DNA from: a virus
DNA: 64,000 nt
Virus genome (UHGV): UHGV-0038498
Direction: 5' to 3' (one strand)
Each line of letters begins with the position of its first letter. Position 1 is the first letter of the stretch. Shown in pieces: positions 8,298-38,085 of this stretch. A program made the position numbers and the translations under genes. The notes under the pieces are model-generated. The model did not search any database. It was not told the origin of the DNA and saw only the letters and a list, made by a program, of their open reading frames with translations.

Positions 8298-9725
8298 GTG
8301 GTAGAAATTATTCTTTCTCATCTCATATTTGATCAAGCTTATTTTTCAAAAGTTTGGCCATATATGGATTCAGAATATTTTGAAAGTGGTCCAGCTAAAA
8401 ATACATTCAAATTAATTAAATCTCATGTTAATGAATACCATAGCGTTCCATCTATTAATGCGTTAAATGTTGCGCTAGAAAATAGTTCATTTACTGAAAC
8501 AGAATATTCTGGTGTAAAAACACTTATTTCGAAACTAGCCGATTCTCCAGAAGACCACAGCTGGTTAGTAAAAGAAACAGAAAAATATGTTCAGCAAAGG
8601 GCGATGTTTAATGCTACGTCTAAAATAATTGAAATTCAAACCAATGCTGAGCTTCCTCCGGAAAAACGAAATAAGAAAATGCCGGATGTTGGTGCTATTC
8701 CTGACATCATGCGCCAAGCATTATCAATTTCATTTGATAGTTATGTTGGTCATGATTGGATGGATGACTACGAAGCACGTTGGCTATCTTATATGAATAA
8801 AGCTCGTAAGGTTCCATTTAAACTCAAAATTCTAAATAAAATTACTAAAGGCGGAGCTGAAACTGGAACACTGAACGTTTTAATGGCCGGTGTTAACGTT
8901 GGTAAGTCATTAGGTCTGTGTTCATTAGCAGCAGATTATTTGCAGCTCGGACATAATGTTCTTTACATTTCCATGGAAATGGCAGAAGAAGTCTGTGCTA
9001 AGCGTATTGATGCTAATATGCTTGATGTTTCTCTCGATGACATTGATGACGGGCATATTTCTTACGCTGAGTATAAAGGAAAAATGGAAAAATGGCGTGA
9101 GAAATCTACTCTCGGTCGTTTAATCGTTAAACAGTATCCTACTGGTGGAGCAGACGCTAATACATTTCGATCTCTTTTAAACGAATTAAAGCTCAAGAAG
9201 AATTTTGTTCCAACAATCATTATTGTTGACTATCTGGGTATTTGTAAATCTTGCCGCATCAGAGTTTATTCAGAAAATAGTTACACAACTGTTAAAGCCA
9301 TCGCAGAAGAATTGCGTGCTCTTGCTGTTGAAACCGAAACTGTTCTTTGGACTGCAGCGCAGGTTGGTAAGCAAGCTTGGGATTCTTCTGATGTTAACAT
9401 GAGCGATATTGCAGAATCTGCCGGTCTTCCAGCAACAGCCGATTTTATGCTTGCGGTCATTGAAACCGAGGAGTTAGCAGCTGCTGAACAACAACTAATT
9501 AAGCAAATCAAATCACGATATGGTGATAAGAATAAATGGAATAAGTTTTTGATGGGTGTTCAAAAAGGAAATCAGAAATGGGTAGAAATTGAGCAAGATT
9601 CTACTCCAACCGAAGTGAACGAAGTAGCAGGTTCACAGCAGATTCAGGCTGAACAGAATCGTTATCAAAGAAACGAATCCGCTCGAGCTCAGTTAGATGC
9701 TTTGGCAAATGAATTAAAATTTTAG
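8298..9725 (+). CDS. 41: Replicative DNA helicase gp41 (DnaB-like); GTG start
   Basis: 475 aa MVEIILSHLIFDQAYFSKVWPYMDSEYFESGPAKNTFKLIKSHV...; Walker A GVNVGKS; T4 gp41 length and sequence. Confidence 0.92.
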   Translation: MVEIILSHLIFDQAYFSKVWPYMDSEYFESGPAKNTFKLIKSHVNEYHSVPSINALNVALENSSFTETEYSGVKTLISKLADSPEDHSWLVKETEKYVQQRAMFNATSKIIEIQTNAELPPEKRNKKMPDVGAIPDIMRQALSISFDSYVGHDWMDDYEARWLSYMNKARKVPFKLKILNKITKGGAETGTLNVLMAGVNVGKSLGLCSLAADYLQLGHNVLYISMEMAEEVCAKRIDANMLDVSLDDIDDGHISYAEYKGKMEKWREKSTLGRLIVKQYPTGGADANTFRSLLNELKLKKNFVPTIIIVDYLGICKSCRIRVYSENSYTTVKAIAEELRALAVETETVLWTAAQVGKQAWDSSDVNMSDIAESAGLPATADFMLAVIETEELAAAEQQLIKQIKSRYGDKNKWNKFLMGVQKGNQKWVEIEQDSTPTEVNEVAGSQQIQAEQNRYQRNESARAQLDALANELKF

Positions 9726-9761
9726 TTTACAAGCCGACAAGACTATGGTATAGTAGTCTTG
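9722..9761 (+). promoter_or_regulatory. Early promoter (-35 GTTTAC 9725-9730, -10 TATAGT 9749-9754) with an 8 bp inverted repeat (CAAGACTA / TAGTCTTG) enclosing the -10
   Basis: GTTTAC-N18-TAnnAT geometry; perfect palindrome arms 9738-9745 and 9754-9761 immediately after gene 41 stop. Confidence 0.5.
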
Positions 9762-9783
9762 TTGGTTAAATGAGGAGATTGTT

Positions 9784-9966
9784 ATGGAATTGGTAAAGGT
9801 AGTTTTTATGGGGTGGTTTAAGAACGAAAGCATGTTTACTAAAGAAATCACAATGATGAAAGATGACGTTCAATGGACTACTAATCAATATGCTGAAGTT
9901 AATAAAGCACTAGTTAAAGCTTTCATTGATGACAAGAAAGTATGCGAAGTGGATTGCCGAGGATAA
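9784..9966 (+). CDS. dmd: Dmd, antitoxin against host RnlA/LsoA (gene 61.5)
   Basis: 60 aa MELVKVVFMGWFKNESMFTKEITMMKDDVQWTTNQYAEVNKALVKAFIDDKKVCEVDCRG; near-identical to T4 Dmd. Confidence 0.85.
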   Translation: MELVKVVFMGWFKNESMFTKEITMMKDDVQWTTNQYAEVNKALVKAFIDDKKVCEVDCRG

Positions 9967-9967
9967 T

Positions 9968-10225
9968 ATGCATATTGTTTTATTTAAACCTACACCGTAT
10001 AACGTCAGGAAAAACACTCAATTCAAAGCACTTATCGCAGATACGTGGGAATTGGTATTAGATATTCCGGCAGAAGAAAGTCCTCCATTTGGTCGAGTGG
10101 AATTTATTAAGTTTGCTGTGCGCCCTACGAAGCGACAGATTCGCCAATGCAAAAGATACTTTCGTAAAATCGTCAAGTTAGAGAAACAGTTTGTAACATG
10201 TGATTATGCAGAAGTTTTAAAATAG
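9968..10225 (+). CDS. Hypothetical protein (61.4 position)
   Basis: ATG 9968 follows dmd stop by 1 nt (MHIVLFKPTPYNVRKNTQFKALIADTWELVLDIPAEE...); the track ORF 9926..10225 is an upstream extension. Confidence 0.5.
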   Translation: MHIVLFKPTPYNVRKNTQFKALIADTWELVLDIPAEESPPFGRVEFIKFAVRPTKRQIRQCKRYFRKIVKLEKQFVTCDYAEVLK

Positions 10226-10260
10226 CTGTTTACTTTTATTGGAAATTGAGATACTATATA
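10225..10260 (+). promoter_or_regulatory. Early promoter (-35 GTTTAC 10228-10233, -10 TACTAT 10252-10257)
   Basis: GTTTAC-N18-TACTAT upstream of sp. Confidence 0.5.
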
Positions 10261-10285
10261 AACATAAATTACTGAGGAGATTATC

Positions 10286-10579
10286 ATGAAAAAATTTATC
10301 TTTGCTACAATTTTTGCTTTATCTTCTTGTGCTGCTCAGCCTGCTATGGCGGGTTATGACAAAGATTTGTGTGAATGGTCTATGACTGCAGATCAGACTG
10401 AAGTTGAAACTCAAATTGAAGCAGATATTATGAATATTGTTGAGCGTGACCGTCCTGAAATGAAAGCTGAAGTACAAAAACAGCTTAAGTCTGGTGGTGT
10501 AATGCAGTATAATTATGTTCTGTATTGCGATAAAAACTTTAATAATAAAAATATCATCGCTGAAGTGGTAGGTGAATAA
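10286..10579 (+). CDS. sp: Spackle periplasmic protein Sp (superinfection exclusion / lysozyme inhibitor; gene 61.3)
   Basis: 97 aa with cleavable signal peptide MKKFIFATIFALSSCAAQPAMA|GYDKDLCEWSM...; matches T4 Sp. Confidence 0.88.
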   Translation: MKKFIFATIFALSSCAAQPAMAGYDKDLCEWSMTADQTEVETQIEADIMNIVERDRPEMKAEVQKQLKSGGVMQYNYVLYCDKNFNNKNIIAEVVGE

Positions 10580-11205
10580 TGCTCTATCAAATGCACAAGT
10601 GCAAAGATACATACAAATATAAAGGTGCTCAGTGTTATATCATTAATCGTGAAAACGCGGGTCCAGGTCATTCGCATCAATCACGGTTTGTATTCGTTAA
10701 AAACAATGAAATTATAGCAGTTGCTAATTACATGCTTGTGACTAATGACGTTAATCCGGTGCCTTTTACATATTATAATCTAATGGATTTGGCGTACGAT
10801 TATAATTGGTTTAATCATGATACTTTGGCTCATATTGAAGGCGTAGGATTTGACATCTCTTATTCTAGTTACTCGTTGTGTCCTATGAGCAGAGCTCATA
10901 AAGAGCCTGAATATTTTTCATTTCGTCGGCGTGTAGATTTTGAACGCAGCACAGAGTATGTCGGTGGAATCTTTGTTAAAGATAATCGAATTACTCGCAT
11001 TATTTATCCTTTGGGCTGTGGTCAAAAAGATATTGATGTTGATTTAGACTTTACTGAAAACATCATTAATCATATTGCTTCTGTGTATTTTGATATTGAT
11101 CACAAAATTGTAATATGTGGATATGAATTACCGTCAGAAAAACAGTCTAAAGTAGATGTTTCTATTGATGACCAAATTTTTAATGCTTTTATGAATAGAG
11201 GTTAA
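10579..11205 (+). CDS. Hypothetical protein (61.2 position)
   Basis: 208 aa ORF with ATGA-type overlap with sp stop; conserved early-gene position. Confidence 0.6.
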   Translation: MLYQMHKCKDTYKYKGAQCYIINRENAGPGHSHQSRFVFVKNNEIIAVANYMLVTNDVNPVPFTYYNLMDLAYDYNWFNHDTLAHIEGVGFDISYSSYSLCPMSRAHKEPEYFSFRRRVDFERSTEYVGGIFVKDNRITRIIYPLGCGQKDIDVDLDFTENIINHIASVYFDIDHKIVICGYELPSEKQSKVDVSIDDQIFNAFMNRG

Positions 11206-11206
11206 T

Positions 11207-11371
11207 ATGAAAACGTTTAAAGAATTTATTAAAGAAGATATGGTAGCTGGAGATTCAGGTGGTAATCCTGAAAATATCTCTACTGGAACAACGTCAGGCG
11301 CTGTAGTAAATAAAGGTCCTGAGCAGATTCCTAAAAAGAAAAAAGAGGAATCTAAAGAAAAAGAAGAGTAA
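11207..11371 (+). CDS. Hypothetical small acidic/lysine-rich protein (61.1 position)
   Basis: 54 aa MKTFKEFIKEDMVAGDSGGNPENISTGTTSGAVVNKGPEQIPKKKKEESKEKEE; tightly packed between neighbours. Confidence 0.45.
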   Translation: MKTFKEFIKEDMVAGDSGGNPENISTGTTSGAVVNKGPEQIPKKKKEESKEKEE

Positions 11372-11373
11372 AA

Positions 11374-12402
11374 ATGCCATCAATACCTTGGATTGATAAT
11401 GAGTTTGCATACCGTGCATTAGCTCATTTACCTAAATTCGCACAAGTAAATAATAGTTCAACTTTTAAATTACGGTTTAGATGCCCTGTTTGTGGAGATT
11501 CAAAAACCGACCAAAATAAAGCCCGTGGATGGTATTATGGCGATAATAATGAAGGAAATATTCATTGTTATAACTGTAACTATCATGCACCAATCGGAAT
11601 ATATTTAAAGGAGTTTGAACCTGATTTATATCGTGAGTATATCTTTGAAATAAGAAAAGAAAAAGGTAAAAGTCGTCCAATAGAAAAACCTAAAGAACTT
11701 CCTAAACAACCTGAGAAGAAAATAATTAAATCTCTTCCGTCATGCATTAGATTAGATAAACTGGCGGAAGACCATCCAATTATAAAATATGTAAAAGCTC
11801 GTTGTATTCCAAAGGATAAATGGAAATATCTTTGGTTTACAACCGAATGGCCTAAATTAGTTAATAGTATAGCGCCAGGAACATATAAAAAGGAAATACC
11901 TGAGCCTCGTCTTGTTATTCCAATTTATAATGCTAACGGAAAAGCTGAGTCTTTTCAAGGACGTGCATTAAAGAAAGATGCTCCTCAAAAATATATCACC
12001 ATCAAAGCTTATCCTGAGGCAACAAAAATTTATGGAGTTGAACGAGTCAAAGATGGTGATGTATATGTTCTAGAAGGACCTATAGATTCACTTTTTATTG
12101 AAAATGGTATAGCTATTACGGGCGGTCAATTAGACCTAGAAATTGTTCCATTTAAAGATAGACGTGTGTGGGTTTTAGATAATGAACCTCGTCACCCTGA
12201 CACTATTAAACGAATGACTAAATTGGTTGATGCAGGAGAAAGGGTTATGTTTTGGGACAAATCTCCCTGGAAATCAAAGGATGTTAATGATATGATTAGA
12301 AAGGAAGGTGCAACCCCTGAACAAATTATGGAATATATGAAAAATAATATTGCCCAAGGGTTGATGGCTAAAATGCGGCTATCTAAATATGCTAAGATTT
12401 AA
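11374..12402 (+). CDS. 61: DNA primase gp61
   Basis: 342 aa MPSIPWIDNEFAYRALAHLPKFAQVNNSSTFKLRFRCPVCGDSKTDQNKARGWYYGDNNEGNIHCYNCNYH...; zinc ribbon CxxC..CxxC plus TOPRIM region; T4 gp61 length. Confidence 0.92.
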   Translation: MPSIPWIDNEFAYRALAHLPKFAQVNNSSTFKLRFRCPVCGDSKTDQNKARGWYYGDNNEGNIHCYNCNYHAPIGIYLKEFEPDLYREYIFEIRKEKGKSRPIEKPKELPKQPEKKIIKSLPSCIRLDKLAEDHPIIKYVKARCIPKDKWKYLWFTTEWPKLVNSIAPGTYKKEIPEPRLVIPIYNANGKAESFQGRALKKDAPQKYITIKAYPEATKIYGVERVKDGDVYVLEGPIDSLFIENGIAITGGQLDLEIVPFKDRRVWVLDNEPRHPDTIKRMTKLVDAGERVMFWDKSPWKSKDVNDMIRKEGATPEQIMEYMKNNIAQGLMAKMRLSKYAKI

Positions 12403-12599
12403 ATTAACCCAACTAAAGCAAATGCTAAATCTACGAATGTATCAAGAGTAATTACCGGAATATTAACACCATGAGCGATAGCAATTGGCGATAAAATAAA
12501 GTTCCAGAGTAAAATTCCTACCATAGCAGAAATAGTAAAAGCTATACGTTTTTTATTACCTTTTATGGCATTAACAAGTGCCATTAATTTTTGTACCAT
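12399..12599 (-). CDS. Hypothetical small membrane protein encoded antisense between genes 61 and 56
   Basis: 66 aa MVQKLMALVNAIKGNKKRIAFTISAMVGILLWNFILSPIAIAHGVNIPVITLDTFVDLAFALVGLI; minus-strand AAGGAGGA 5 nt upstream of ATG; stop overlaps primase stop. Confidence 0.55.
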   Translation of the reverse strand: MVQKLMALVNAIKGNKKRIAFTISAMVGILLWNFILSPIAIAHGVNIPVITLDTFVDLAFALVGLI

Positions 12600-12610
12600 A
12601 TATCCTCCTT

Positions 12611-12636
12611 ATTGCTTTATATATTTATTGTATAAT
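12611..12636 (+). promoter_or_regulatory. Candidate middle promoter for gene 56 (MotA-box-like ATTGCTTTA 12611-12619; extended -10 TGTATAAT 12629-12636)
   Basis: TGCTT box about 18 nt upstream of TATAAT; spacing 1-2 nt off the ideal. Confidence 0.3.
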
Positions 12637-12670
12637 TAATCTACTAACCCATGAATTGAAAGGAAAAATA

Positions 12671-13189
12671 ATGGCATACTTTAATGAATGTTCACAACTG
12701 ATCGAAGGCGCTGATAAAGCTCAAAATGAATACTGGGATATTCTCGGTGATGAAAAAGACCCGCTGCAGGTTATGCTTGATATGCAGAAATCTCTGCAGG
12801 TTCGTTTAGCTAAAGATAAACCTGAATATAACCGTCATCCTGATGATTTGGCTACTGCAGGCGAAGTTGTTGATTGGCTGCGTAATCAGAAAGATTATAT
12901 TGATGATGAATTCCGCGAACTACTGACTTCTCTTGGTGGTATGAGCAATGGCGAAAAAGATGCATCTGCTGTATGGAAGCCATGGAAAGCTCAACATGGT
13001 GAACGTCGTGAAACTCTGATTACTGATTTGTCTCCACAAGACCAGTTGGAAATTAAATTCGAAATGATTGATATTCTTCATTTCGTTCTGAACATGTTCC
13101 AAGGTCTCGGTCTTACAGCTGAAGAAATCTTTAAACTTTATTATCTAAAAAATGCCGAAAACTTCGCTCGTCAAGACCGAGGTTATTAA
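12671..13189 (+). CDS. 56: dCTPase / dCTP pyrophosphatase gp56
   Basis: 172 aa from ATG 12671 (MAYFNECSQLIEGADKAQNEYWDILGDEKDPLQVMLDMQKSLQ...EEIFKLYYLKNAENFARQDRGY); matches T4 gp56; the 203 aa track ORF is a 5' extension. Confidence 0.9.
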   Translation: MAYFNECSQLIEGADKAQNEYWDILGDEKDPLQVMLDMQKSLQVRLAKDKPEYNRHPDDLATAGEVVDWLRNQKDYIDDEFRELLTSLGGMSNGEKDASAVWKPWKAQHGERRETLITDLSPQDQLEIKFEMIDILHFVLNMFQGLGLTAEEIFKLYYLKNAENFARQDRGY

Positions 13190-13223
13190 TATAAACGACA
13201 GCTTAAAAGCTGTGAGAATTTAT

Positions 13224-13231
13224 TATAAATA
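13224..13231 (+). promoter_or_regulatory. T4 late promoter TATAAATA for soc
   Basis: Exact TATAAATA 30 nt upstream of soc ATG; soc is a late capsid gene. Confidence 0.6.
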
Positions 13232-13261
13232 GTCATGTAATTTAAATAAAAGGAGAATTAC

Positions 13262-13507
13262 ATGGCTAGTACTCGCGGTTATGTTAATATTAAAACATTT
13301 GAGCAGAAATTAGATGGAAATAAGAAAATTGAAGGAAAAGAAATTTCTGTAGCTTTCCCTCTTTATTCTGACGTTCACAAAATTTCTGGCGCTCATTATC
13401 AGACATTCCCTTCAGAAAAAGCAGCATATTCTACAGTATATGAAGAAAATCAACGTGATGCATGGATTACTGCAAACGAAGATTTGTGGAAAGTAACTGG
13501 TGAATAA
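13262..13507 (+). CDS. soc: Small outer capsid protein Soc
   Basis: 81 aa MASTRGYVNIKTFEQKLDGNKKIEGKEISVAFPLYSDVHKISGAHYQTFPSEKAAYSTVYEEN...; matches T4 Soc. Confidence 0.92.
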   Translation: MASTRGYVNIKTFEQKLDGNKKIEGKEISVAFPLYSDVHKISGAHYQTFPSEKAAYSTVYEENQRDAWITANEDLWKVTGE

Positions 13508-37397: not shown

Positions 37398-38054
37398 TTA
37401 TTTAGCCCTTCCTAATATTCTGGCCGCCTGAGCACATATTGATTCAAGGCGGTCATTACTTATATGATCATTTCTATACCAGTACATGGTTATTGTTCCA
37501 GCATAGATATTATCCAAATTGAAATATGGACAACTGTACATGTAATTTATTTCGGGAGTAGGCTTTTTAGTCGGTAAAAAAGCAAATTTTGAGTTGGAAT
37601 AATAATGACGTCCATTTAAATGAACTGCATATTCATCCATAGTTTTATCAACAGGATATCCTCCAAGTGATTTTTCACTTATTGTTGAAGGTAATTTTCC
37701 TTCATATGCTATAATATCAACAAAATAGTTTAAGTTTTTAGGGCGGAAAGAATACACCGCACTAAAGTCTGCCTCAGATGATATATGAACTATCTGGAGT
37801 TGTTCCAGGGCGACAGATTCAAAGCGTGCATTTCTTTCCTTTTCAATAATTTCACTGTATGTTTCATACTTTGATTGCTTATAGTACTCAAAGAAACTAT
37901 CTCCCCTATACCAAACAATCGCCATTATAAACAAAAGAATTACGACAGCTACACGGGAAGCAAGAACTTTCCCGGTAGCGTTATCTTTGAACAAGCGATC
38001 TAGAACACCAAACAGAATATCAGAGGGCGAAAATGATATTCTAGGTGCTGCCAT
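37398..38054 (-). CDS. t: Holin T
   Basis: 218 aa MAAPRISFSPSDILFGVLDRLFKDNATGKVLASRVAVVILLFIMAIVWYRGDSFFEYYKQSKYETYSEI...; single TM with large periplasmic domain; T4 T; SD AAGGAGGG. Confidence 0.92.
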   Translation of the reverse strand: MAAPRISFSPSDILFGVLDRLFKDNATGKVLASRVAVVILLFIMAIVWYRGDSFFEYYKQSKYETYSEIIEKERNARFESVALEQLQIVHISSEADFSAVYSFRPKNLNYFVDIIAYEGKLPSTISEKSLGGYPVDKTMDEYAVHLNGRHYYSNSKFAFLPTKKPTPEINYMYSCPYFNLDNIYAGTITMYWYRNDHISNDRLESICAQAARILGRAK

Positions 38055-38085
38055 AGACCCTCCTTTTAAGGATATTTATTCAAAA

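Follow-up and report, generated by a model that had tools for sequence, protein, structure and literature searches.

A 66-codon ORF on the minus strand between gene 61 and gene 56 in a 64,000-nucleotide stretch of viral genome UHGV-0038498 (hereafter the window) is very probably a real late membrane-protein gene of holin ancestry. Sequence comparison establishes it as a real, conserved gene under purifying selection, and profile comparison establishes that its product shares homology with the last two hydrophobic helices of 3TM-type holins, which make up the membrane core of those proteins. By the same comparisons, the protein is a shortened, distant relative of the PF11351 holin family, a link that is new here. 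Our best explanation as a whole, which we put a little below an even chance, is that this is a conserved late gene of T-even phages whose product, a holin-derived inner-membrane protein, would serve as an accessory to lysis.

The Junction between Genes 61 and 56

The original prediction was that an antisense gene encoding a small membrane protein converges on gene 61, and this was borne out by conservation, purifying selection, and the signals present in homologues. The ORF, which has an ATG start, and its translation agree exactly with what was first quoted (Table 1). The overlap of its stop with that of the primase was also found: gene 61 ends at 12402 and the stop codon of the ORF occupies 12399–12401, and an identical 4-nt overlap occurs in T4, JS09, CkP1, and MY742. 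The ATG of gene 56 at 12671 leaves the expected gap of 268 bp between genes 61 and 56. A strong Shine-Dalgarno sequence had been proposed 5 nt upstream of the ATG, and it is present but with a spacer of 3 nt: on the minus strand, AAGGAGGA (plus-strand coordinates 12610→12603) is followed by TAT and then by the ATG at 12599–12597. An equivalent Shine-Dalgarno sequence (GGAGG/AGGAG) was found in 16 of 16 homologous loci.

As had also been predicted, a MotA-box/−10 pair abuts the 5′ end of the ORF. Read against the T4 middle-promoter consensus, this pair is a candidate MotA-dependent promoter of gene 56, with TGTATAAT on the plus strand at 12629–12636, and its spacer holds the minus-strand late box of the ORF that is described below. 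A weak terminator-like hairpin lies on the plus strand at 12565–12584. We considered a dual start similar to that of lambda S (M1...K4...M6) for the ORF and rejected it, because M6 has no Shine-Dalgarno sequence of its own and the dual-start motif is not conserved; the Shine-Dalgarno sequence is 19 nt from M6, and M6 is confined to Tequatrovirus and one unplaced metagenomic relative (P0051).

Table 1. Features at the gene 61/56 junction of the window
Feature	Position	Strand	Description	Basis
CDS, 66-aa membrane protein	12399..12599	−	ATG start; begins MVQKLMALVNAIKGNKKR, ends ...ALVGLI	ORF listing
Shine-Dalgarno sequence AAGGAGGA	12603..12610	−	3-nt spacer to ATG	Sequence
TTAA common to the convergent stops of gene 61 and the ORF	12399..12402	.		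Sequence and ORF listing
Gene 61 (DNA primase)	11374..12402	+	Convergent neighbor of the ORF	
Gene 56 (dCTPase)	12671..13189	+	Divergent neighbor of the ORF	
Candidate MotA-dependent middle promoter of gene 56	12612..12636	+	TTGCTTTA 12612–12619, 11-nt spacer, TG-TATAAT 12629–12636	Read from sequence
Late-promoter box AATAAATA	12622..12629	−	A(−13) variant of TATAAATA	Pattern search
Predicted late transcription start	12616	−	17-nt 5′ UTR AGCAAUAAGGAGGAUAU	Inferred from box at −13 to −6

Conservation and Genomic Context of the ORF

T4 carries dam in the interval between genes 61 and 56, as stated in the original prediction, from which it had been concluded that the oppositely oriented membrane-protein gene replaced dam in a cassette swap. 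The presence of dam at this junction in T4 and its absence from the window accord with that conclusion. However, the two genomes are collinear on either side, with about 900 bp including dam in T4 where the window has 20 bp (12611–12630), and the 309 bp that separate gene 61 from dam in T4, which carry no annotation, contain the same ORF (NC_000866 17738–17935, 95.5% identity). Phage F1 likewise carries dam and the ORF together. What stays constant at the junction is the ORF, and its neighbor varies: this may be dam, small ORFs (CkP1, MY742), a 181-aa ORF (in one T2 record), a homing endonuclease (YenP8), or nothing. The swap, to which we give almost no credence, is already refuted by the T4 sequence. 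The junction is contiguous, in the layout without dam, in 333 of 696 matching phage records, and the window phage merely lacks dam, like about half of its relatives.

We found the ORF in 693 phage records, with at least 80% of its length covered in 687 of them. Homologues in the same position and orientation beside the primase gene are present in Mosigvirus, Gaprivervirus, Karamvirus, Jiaodavirus, the unclassified Enterobacter phage MY742, and Raoultella phage M21a; at least six Tevenvirinae genera have such homologues, with identity falling to ∼28%. The ORF was also detected by tblastn in Dhakavirus, S16-like Salmonella phages, Citrobacter phages Moon and Merlin, and Edwardsiella phage PEi20. 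It matches PHROG 2024 (E 3.5e-31; residues 2–66 against profile positions 1–65 of 65), a family listed as being of “unknown function,” and hundreds of Tequatrovirus and Mosigvirus genomes label it a “hypothetical protein” (for example RB32ORF030w and RB69ORF029w, which belong to the same family and share the position and orientation of the window ORF). The T4 reference annotation omits it, as do several other records, among them those of VR7, VR20, SP18, PEi20, and IME523. A literature search on the names RB32ORF030w and RB69ORF029w found no paper mentioning either, and a search of the window with the family HMM found no paralogue.

Antisense ORFs of 30–67 aa are numerous in the ORF listing of the window, and because the DNA is AT-rich, the length of an antisense ORF is not significant by itself. 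This abundance, together with the overlap between the 5′ end of the ORF and the candidate promoter elements of gene 56, might suggest a chance ORF that is kept only through the overlapping gene 56 promoter and gene 61 end. The promoter overlap is limited to the leader, however, and does not involve the 201-bp coding sequence, and genomes in which dam or a homing endonuclease parts the ORF from gene 56 or gene 61 still have it. The substitution pattern is also that of a coding frame: variable sites are distributed 8/1/14 and 38/13/47 by codon position in the frame of the ORF, which is a third-position bias, and dN/dS is 0.08–0.3, which denotes purifying selection. Length variants among the homologues differ by whole codons. 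The ORF stands above chance because it is conserved, is under purifying selection, and has a Shine-Dalgarno sequence/late box in every homologue, and the probability that it arose and persisted by chance is negligible.

Late Expression Signals

The T4 late-promoter box occupies positions −13 to −6 relative to the start site (PMC1524935), and both the consensus and its known variants have been described (PMC2988020, PMC1524935). The ORF has the TATAAATA-type box at −13 to −6 that marks T4 late genes, in the form AATAAATA at 12629→12622. A(−13) is the commonest of the known variants, accounting for 9 of the 50 T4 late-promoter sites listed (PMC2988020). Of the 16 homologous loci, 15 have ATAAATA at a distance of 12–22 nt upstream of the ATG, within flanking sequence that is otherwise unalignable; the exception is CkP1, which has ATTAAATA. 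The base at −13 is G in T4, T2, and KPV15 and C in CJ20 and YenP8, both of which are rarer promoter variants than T or A. The box of the window and that of T4 both fall within the nonhomologous segment at the dam breakpoint and have therefore been kept independently. WATAAATA occurs less often in the window than expected (10 sites, compared with 23 ± 4.8), and half of these sites are located 18–34 nt upstream of a Shine-Dalgarno sequence and ATG, namely those of soc, t, 36, 34, and the ORF. We infer that the ORF is transcribed late from the predicted box. A literature search for T4 ribosome profiling, transcription-start mapping, and small-protein data found nothing covering the ORF.

The original prediction also treated the opposite orientation of the ORF as an anomaly within the early region, and this does not stand, because the ORF is oppositely oriented as a late-promoter gene. 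What that prediction observed thus holds, but its interpretation was half wrong.

A late transcript of the ORF would run into gene 61, as the minus strand has no terminator-like site within the first 2.9 kb or more beyond the ORF, and some regions of T4 are transcribed on both strands at different times (PMC2988020). The antisense RNA might in that case be the functional product, helping to shut off the primase, with the ORF being incidental. We consider this very unlikely in the face of the constraint at the protein level (the dN/dS values given above, the invariant W..P motif, and a frame and length that are kept down to ∼28% identity), the strong Shine-Dalgarno sequence in every lineage, and the homology of the ORF to a protein family. 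The predicted fold of the late mRNA is unremarkable (z-score −0.5), which also led us to reject RNA-structure explanations of the locus. An antisense effect could nevertheless accompany that of the protein.

Homology to the Membrane Core of PF11351 Holins

Hydropathy and charge positions give the ORF product a cationic N terminus (K/R at residues 4, 13, and 16–18), a long hydrophobic helix at ∼16–42, a turn with the conserved P48, and a C-terminal hydrophobic helix at 52–63; at ∼13–16 residues, this second hydrophobic helix is short for a segment that crosses the whole membrane. The AlphaFold2 model (pLDDT 76.5) has helices at 2–12, 16–42, and 52–63. Among the homologues, W32 and P38 are invariant and N33 and P48 are nearly so. 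These features point to a membrane topology in which the N terminus is cytoplasmic. A Foldseek search against viral structure models returned matches only from the family of the ORF itself.

Pfam and NCBIfam searches of the ORF gave nothing significant, and a Pfam scan of the window ORF gave no match even at E ≤ 10. In an hhalign comparison, however, the ORF family matched the PF11351 proteins with Prob 95.9, E 5.6e-9, and a score of 49.3, whereas the controls gave ≤18 (column-shuffled alignments), 9.8 (reversed alignment), and ≤16 (unrelated ICP1 membrane proteins). Residues 21–65 of the ORF align without gaps to residues 65–109 of a 124-aa holin, and the two share the pattern N-[YF]-x4-P-x5-G-x3-P...G. 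An intermediate subfamily bridges the ORF family and PF11351 (E 4e-18 and 4e-9). When an HMM built only from PF11351 proteins was run against the 931 six-frame peptides of the window, the ORF was the sole match (E 2e-6), and in the reverse search, 121 of 122 PF11351 proteins ranked above all background peptides. Distant members of the ORF family score 13.6–15.3 bits against PF11351, below the gathering threshold of 24.8, compared with 60.8 bits for C72C1 and 57.9 bits for CRP-125 gp44, which are true members.

PF11351 (GTA_holin_3TM, formerly DUF3154) includes the phage C72C1 “holin” and Roseobacter phage CRP-125 gp44, and its name ties the family to holins for the release of gene-transfer agents. 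The ORF retains only the C-terminal third of such a holin and is about half the size: the N-terminal domain (∼60 residues, profile positions 1–65) and the charged C-terminal tail, a usual feature of holins, are absent, and the ORF has ∼20 residues before the aligned core and ends in ...VGLI. Like the PF11351 holins, it has expression signals of the late or lysis type, as predicted from sequence, but it has no adjoining endolysin gene. Rather than forming part of a lysis cassette, the gene sits between the primase gene and dCTPase, dam, or small ORFs in all T-even-type loci. Two intermediate relatives (P0066 and P0067) adjoin Phage_lysozyme genes in the late regions of prophages, and PHROG scans of the genes flanking the prophage relatives added nothing to this. 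CRP-125 gp44 lies between tail-fiber genes and DNA maturase A/B, the interval that in T7 holds the holin gene 17.5.

Members of PF11351 have been reported or treated as holins (PMC7182436, PMC6630229), and remote homology has been used to place the experimentally studied ICP1 holin TeaA in the family (PMC7182436). We looked for a direct link between the ORF and TeaA and rejected it. ICP1 ORF135–139 gave neither a PF11351 match in hmmscan nor a significant hhalign match to the T4-type family or the PF11351 alignment, and ORF137, the probable TeaA, has no significant similarity to the ORF; we therefore advise against citing TeaA as a relative.

Discussion

We propose that late in infection, gp55-RNA polymerase would initiate at the AATAAATA box and produce a minus-strand mRNA with a short leader, from which the strong Shine-Dalgarno sequence would drive translation of the 66-aa protein. 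The protein would enter the inner membrane with its cationic N terminus in the cytoplasm, its long transmembrane helix bearing the W-N...P...G motif, followed by a short periplasmic turn (P48) and the second, short hydrophobic helix. This membrane core would derive from the last two hydrophobic helices of PF11351 holins, with loss of the ∼60-residue N-terminal domain and the charged tail. The protein might then be an accessory to the lysis program, either as a weak depolarizer resembling a pinholin or as a partner that tunes the timing of holin T. That it acts in lysis is a tentative proposal, somewhat short of an even prospect.

The protein is not the main holin. T4 t mutants do not lyse, and the ORF product is therefore not a sufficient holin. 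T4 T, which is necessary for lysis, is a 218-aa protein that has a single transmembrane domain and a large domain in the periplasm. In the window, t resembles the ORF in being a late gene with a AATAAATA box and a strong Shine-Dalgarno sequence, and both products are inner-membrane proteins (by prediction for the ORF), but the two have no sequence relationship: the family HMM matches no other peptide of the window, including that of t. By analogy only, the ORF is similar to class II holins and pinholins (phage 21 S21-68) and to PLE LidI (66 aa) in size (60–70 aa), in having two hydrophobic helices, in its probable N-in topology, and in its predicted late expression; unlike the class II holins and pinholins, it lacks a charged C-terminal tail and a conserved dual-start motif. 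LidI is a 66-aa transmembrane protein that alters holin timing and is not itself a holin (PMC7182436).

The fold could instead have been co-opted, giving a late inner-membrane protein with a role outside lysis. Possible roles of this kind are late superinfection exclusion or the blocking of incoming DNA, a membrane anchor for an assembly step, and the countering of a membrane-based host defense. In T-even phages, the gene lies among genes for replication and nucleotide metabolism and has no lysis gene nearby; both the N-terminal domain and the charged tail of the PF11351 holins are gone from its product; its family has no defined function (PHROG 2024); and nonlytic holin-like proteins are documented (PMC9636201). 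However, the only functional information on the relatives points to lysis (holin annotations, neighboring lysozyme genes, and the tail-fiber/maturase position), and the A(−13) late-promoter variant of the ORF is also the one that precedes the holin gene t in the window. We regard co-option as a credible but doubtful alternative to a role in lysis. The ORF product could also be a second holin-derived late membrane protein in T4 and its relatives, forming an unrecognized part of the lysis/lysis-inhibition system, for example by acting on the triggering of holin T, to set or sharpen it, or by depolarizing the membrane, although we think this rather unlikely.

Holin-controlled lysis and lysis inhibition have T4 as their reference system, and the T4 gene list is generally taken to be complete. 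Reads from omics studies are mapped to that list, and a gene that is missing from the annotation is invisible to them. A conserved late gene of holin ancestry outside the T4 annotation could be an overlooked player in lysis timing, and the survival of a holin membrane core as a free-standing protein of 60–70 residues across a phage subfamily is a case of holin-domain reuse. Even if deletion of the gene had no phenotype, the annotation of T4 would be corrected.

An antisense gene at the junction of genes 61 and 56

We confirmed the presence of an antisense ORF between gene 61 (primase) and gene 56 (dCTPase), and the translation given for it in the original prediction matches the window sequence exactly. 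The 268 bp gap between the two genes contains no plus-strand gene, and the convergent stop codons of gene 61 and the ORF have TTAA in common. The predicted Shine-Dalgarno sequence is present, but its spacer is 3 nt and not 5 nt as had been proposed. Both elements of the candidate gene 56 promoter were found on the plus strand, with a spacing that fits a MotA-type middle promoter. Because many other antisense ORFs of 30–67 aa appear in the ORF listing for the window, the length of this ORF by itself says little. A terminator-like hairpin on the early strand falls within codons 6–12 of the ORF; it may attenuate transcription running on from 61 into 56, or it may be a chance feature.

Features of the 61/56 junction and late-promoter boxes in the window
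Feature	Position	Strand	Remarks
Gene 61	ends 12402	+	primase
66-aa ORF	12399-12599	-	66 codons, ATG start
Hairpin	12565-12584	+	ATGGCATTAACAAGTGCCAT then TAATTTTTGT; terminator-like
Shine-Dalgarno of ORF	12610->12603	-	AAGGAGGA, then TAT, then ATG
Candidate gene 56 middle promoter, part	12612-12619	+	TTGCTTTA
Predicted late start	~12616	-	17-nt leader containing the Shine-Dalgarno
Late-promoter box 5' of ORF	12629->12622	-	AATAAATA
Candidate gene 56 middle promoter, part	12629-12636	+	TGTATAAT
Gene 56	starts 12671	+	dCTPase
soc late box	13224-13231		TATAAATA, perfect
soc	starts 13262		
Holin gene t	about 37398-38080	-	218 aa, MAAPRISFSPSDILFG...
WATAAATA sites	12622, 13224, 35308, 38073, 38472, 43070, 43589, 48656, 50896, 55521		

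The ORF had been proposed to replace dam, which T4 carries between 61 and 56. The T4 record does contain dam at this site, but the 309 bp gap between 61 and dam, which carries no annotation in the RefSeq record, holds the same 66-aa ORF (95.5% identity), convergent with 61. In a BLAST comparison, window 12300-12610 is collinear with T4 18037-17725 and window 12631-12787 with T4 16825-16669; between these blocks, T4 has about 900 bp including dam, whereas the window has 20 bp. As T4 has both genes between collinear flanks, the ORF is not a dam replacement, and the phage studied here merely lacks dam. This phage is a Tequatrovirus with 98% identity across the junction to PinkRuby, sb3, PhiZZ6, and similar phages, and many phages share the dam-less layout: of 696 phage records that match, 333 run through the junction without a break.

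The ORF stays in place at the junction, and what lies next to it changes. T4 and F1 have dam there, one T2 record (PV958097) has a 181-aa ORF, CkP1 and MY742 have small ORFs, and in Yersinia phage vB_YenM_P8 a homing endonuclease gene separates the ORF from the primase gene. The T2 181-aa hypothetical ORF (locus L015, 1-510), at the site of dam in T4, has a PD-(D/E)XK-like D...EIK motif and matches the Pfam DpnII family of GATC-cutting endonucleases weakly, below threshold (E 0.009); T4 has a GATC methylase at the same locus. The vB_YenM_P8 insertion (locus L016, 809-1389), which occupies the space from the small ORF to the expected primase site, carries the endonuclease gene and a 33-aa fragment annotated "DNA packaging ATPase" and represents a second type of insert at the junction. 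In the window (12671-13507), soc comes immediately after gene 56, without segF, the homing endonuclease gene that separates them in T4; dam and segF, the two optional T4 genes of this stretch, are both missing.

The ORF encodes a conserved, predicted membrane protein

A tblastn search found the protein in 693 phage records, in 687 of them at full length. Most annotations call it a "hypothetical protein" (RB32ORF030w, RB69ORF029w), and it falls in PHROG 2024, of unknown function. Homologs in the same position and orientation are present in Mosigvirus JS09 (~51% identity), Gaprivervirus CJ20, Karamvirus CkP1, Jiaodavirus KPV15, Enterobacter phage MY742, and Raoultella phage M21a, with identity falling to ~28%. 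Further tblastn matches came from Dhakavirus, S16-like Salmonella phages, Citrobacter phages Moon and Merlin, and Edwardsiella phage PEi20, several of whose records leave the ORF unannotated. Pairwise dN/dS in the ORF frame is 0.08–0.3 within and between genera, variable sites are distributed over the three codon positions as 8/1/14 in Tequatrovirus and 38/13/47 in Mosigvirus/Gaprivervirus, and length variants differ by whole codons. Residues W32 and P38 never vary, and N33, G44, and P48 are almost invariant. We conclude that the ORF is a real protein-coding gene. A purely RNA-level role, in which the minus-strand transcript would act as an antisense RNA, is unlikely given this protein-level constraint, and the RNA fold is unremarkable (z = -0.5).

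Among 1.84 billion cluster representatives, a profile search recovered only 21, indicating that the family is small and phage-restricted. Two natural variants (P0025 and P0041) carry in-frame 3-residue deletions within the first hydrophobic helix, which therefore tolerates shortening by about one turn. A further cluster representative, P0059, is a T4-type protein in which all differences (A->V, T->I, S->F, P->L, H->Y, R->C, and Q3 CAA->TAA, which shifts the start to M6) are explicable by C->T changes; this suggests that it was assembled from bisulfite- or deaminase-converted reads and is not a natural variant.

The N-terminus is cationic (K/R at 4, 13, and 16–18), and the protein has no acidic residues other than D53 and D57. 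AlphaFold2 with the family alignment (pLDDT 76.5) predicted helices at 2–12, 16–42, and 52–63. By the positive-inside rule, the N-terminus would be cytoplasmic; the long helix would then cross the membrane, placing the conserved P48 turn in the periplasm, and the short C-terminal helix would re-enter the membrane or lie within it.

Remote homology to 3TM-type holins

Distant family members gave weak but consistent matches to Pfam PF11351 (GTA_holin_3TM) and PHROG 3427 "holin." With tblastn, one of these members led to a 124-aa annotated holin of phage C72C1, and another to gp44 of the T7-like Roseobacter phage CRP-125; both are true PF11351 members (E about 1e-16). The gp44 gene is flanked by the tail-fibre genes and DNA maturase A/B, the position of holin gene 17.5 in T7. 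An hhalign comparison of the T-even family (24 sequences) with seven PF11351 proteins gave Prob 95.9, E 5.6e-9, and a score of 49.3, with ORF residues 21–65 aligned without gaps to holin residues 65–109. Column-shuffled alignments (150 shuffles each way) averaged 10–11 with a maximum of 18, the reversed alignment scored 9.8, and unrelated ICP1 membrane proteins scored at most 16. An intermediate subfamily of 50–99 aa bridges the T-even family and PF11351 (E 4e-18 and 4e-9). When an HMM built from PF11351 proteins only was run without filters on the 931 six-frame window peptides of at least 30 aa, the 66-aa ORF was the sole match (E 2e-6; next best 1.6). In the reverse search, 121 of 122 PF11351 proteins outranked every background peptide, although the 122 represent two lineages only and CRP-125 gp44 was weak (E 0.14).

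These profile comparisons argue that the ORF product is a truncated relative of 3TM-type holins. It does not reach Pfam's own PF11351 threshold. Of the holin architecture, only the final two hydrophobic helices remain; the N-terminal domain and the charged tail of PF11351 holins are absent. The experimentally studied ICP1 holin TeaA is assigned to PF11351 by remote homology only (PMC7182436). ICP1 ORF135-139 showed no significant similarity to the T-even family of the ORF, and so we claim no direct relationship to TeaA.

Two of the intermediate relatives are encoded at the ends of prophage late regions, next to Phage_lysozyme genes; in T-even phages, no lysis gene lies beside the ORF. T4 t mutants do not lyse, and the 66-aa protein therefore cannot be a sufficient holin; it may have a membrane role unrelated to lysis.

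A predicted late promoter

ATAAATA lies 12–22 nt 5' of the ATG in 15 of 16 homologous loci (CkP1 has ATTAAATA instead), and the sequence around it cannot otherwise be aligned between genera; the MY742 box is a perfect TATAAATA. T4 late promoters have TATAAATA at -13 to -6, with A at -13 in 9 of 50 listed T4 sites, and T4 relatives show little conservation at -13 (PMC2988020, PMC1524935). The predicted transcription start follows from this box position. In both the window and T4, the box falls within the non-homologous segment at the dam breakpoint, indicating that it was retained independently on both backgrounds, and in T4, T2, and F1 the shared sequence 5' of the ORF starts at the box while the genes further upstream differ.

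The window is strongly depleted of WATAAATA (10 sites versus 23 ± 4.8 expected from shuffles, with at least 10 sites in all 100 of 100 shuffles), a pattern that selection against stray late promoters could explain. Half of the 10 sites lie 18–34 nt before a Shine-Dalgarno sequence and ATG, those of the known late genes soc, t, 36, and 34 and of the 66-aa ORF. Holin gene t has the same A(-13) variant box as the ORF, 18 nt before its ATG.

The minus-strand late box lies inside the spacer of the candidate plus-strand middle promoter of gene 56, which suggests a compact, time-shared divergent promoter region for the two genes. No minus-strand terminator-like site was predicted over 2.9 kb downstream of the ORF (window 9500-12450), and so a late transcript from the predicted start may run antisense through gene 61 and beyond.

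The ORF is not new to the databases: many genomes list it as a hypothetical protein, and submission OE5505 names it "Holin." What is new is that the T4 reference annotation omits it, that it has a conserved, predicted late promoter, and that it is recognizable, from its sequence, as a truncated relative of the 3TM-type holins.
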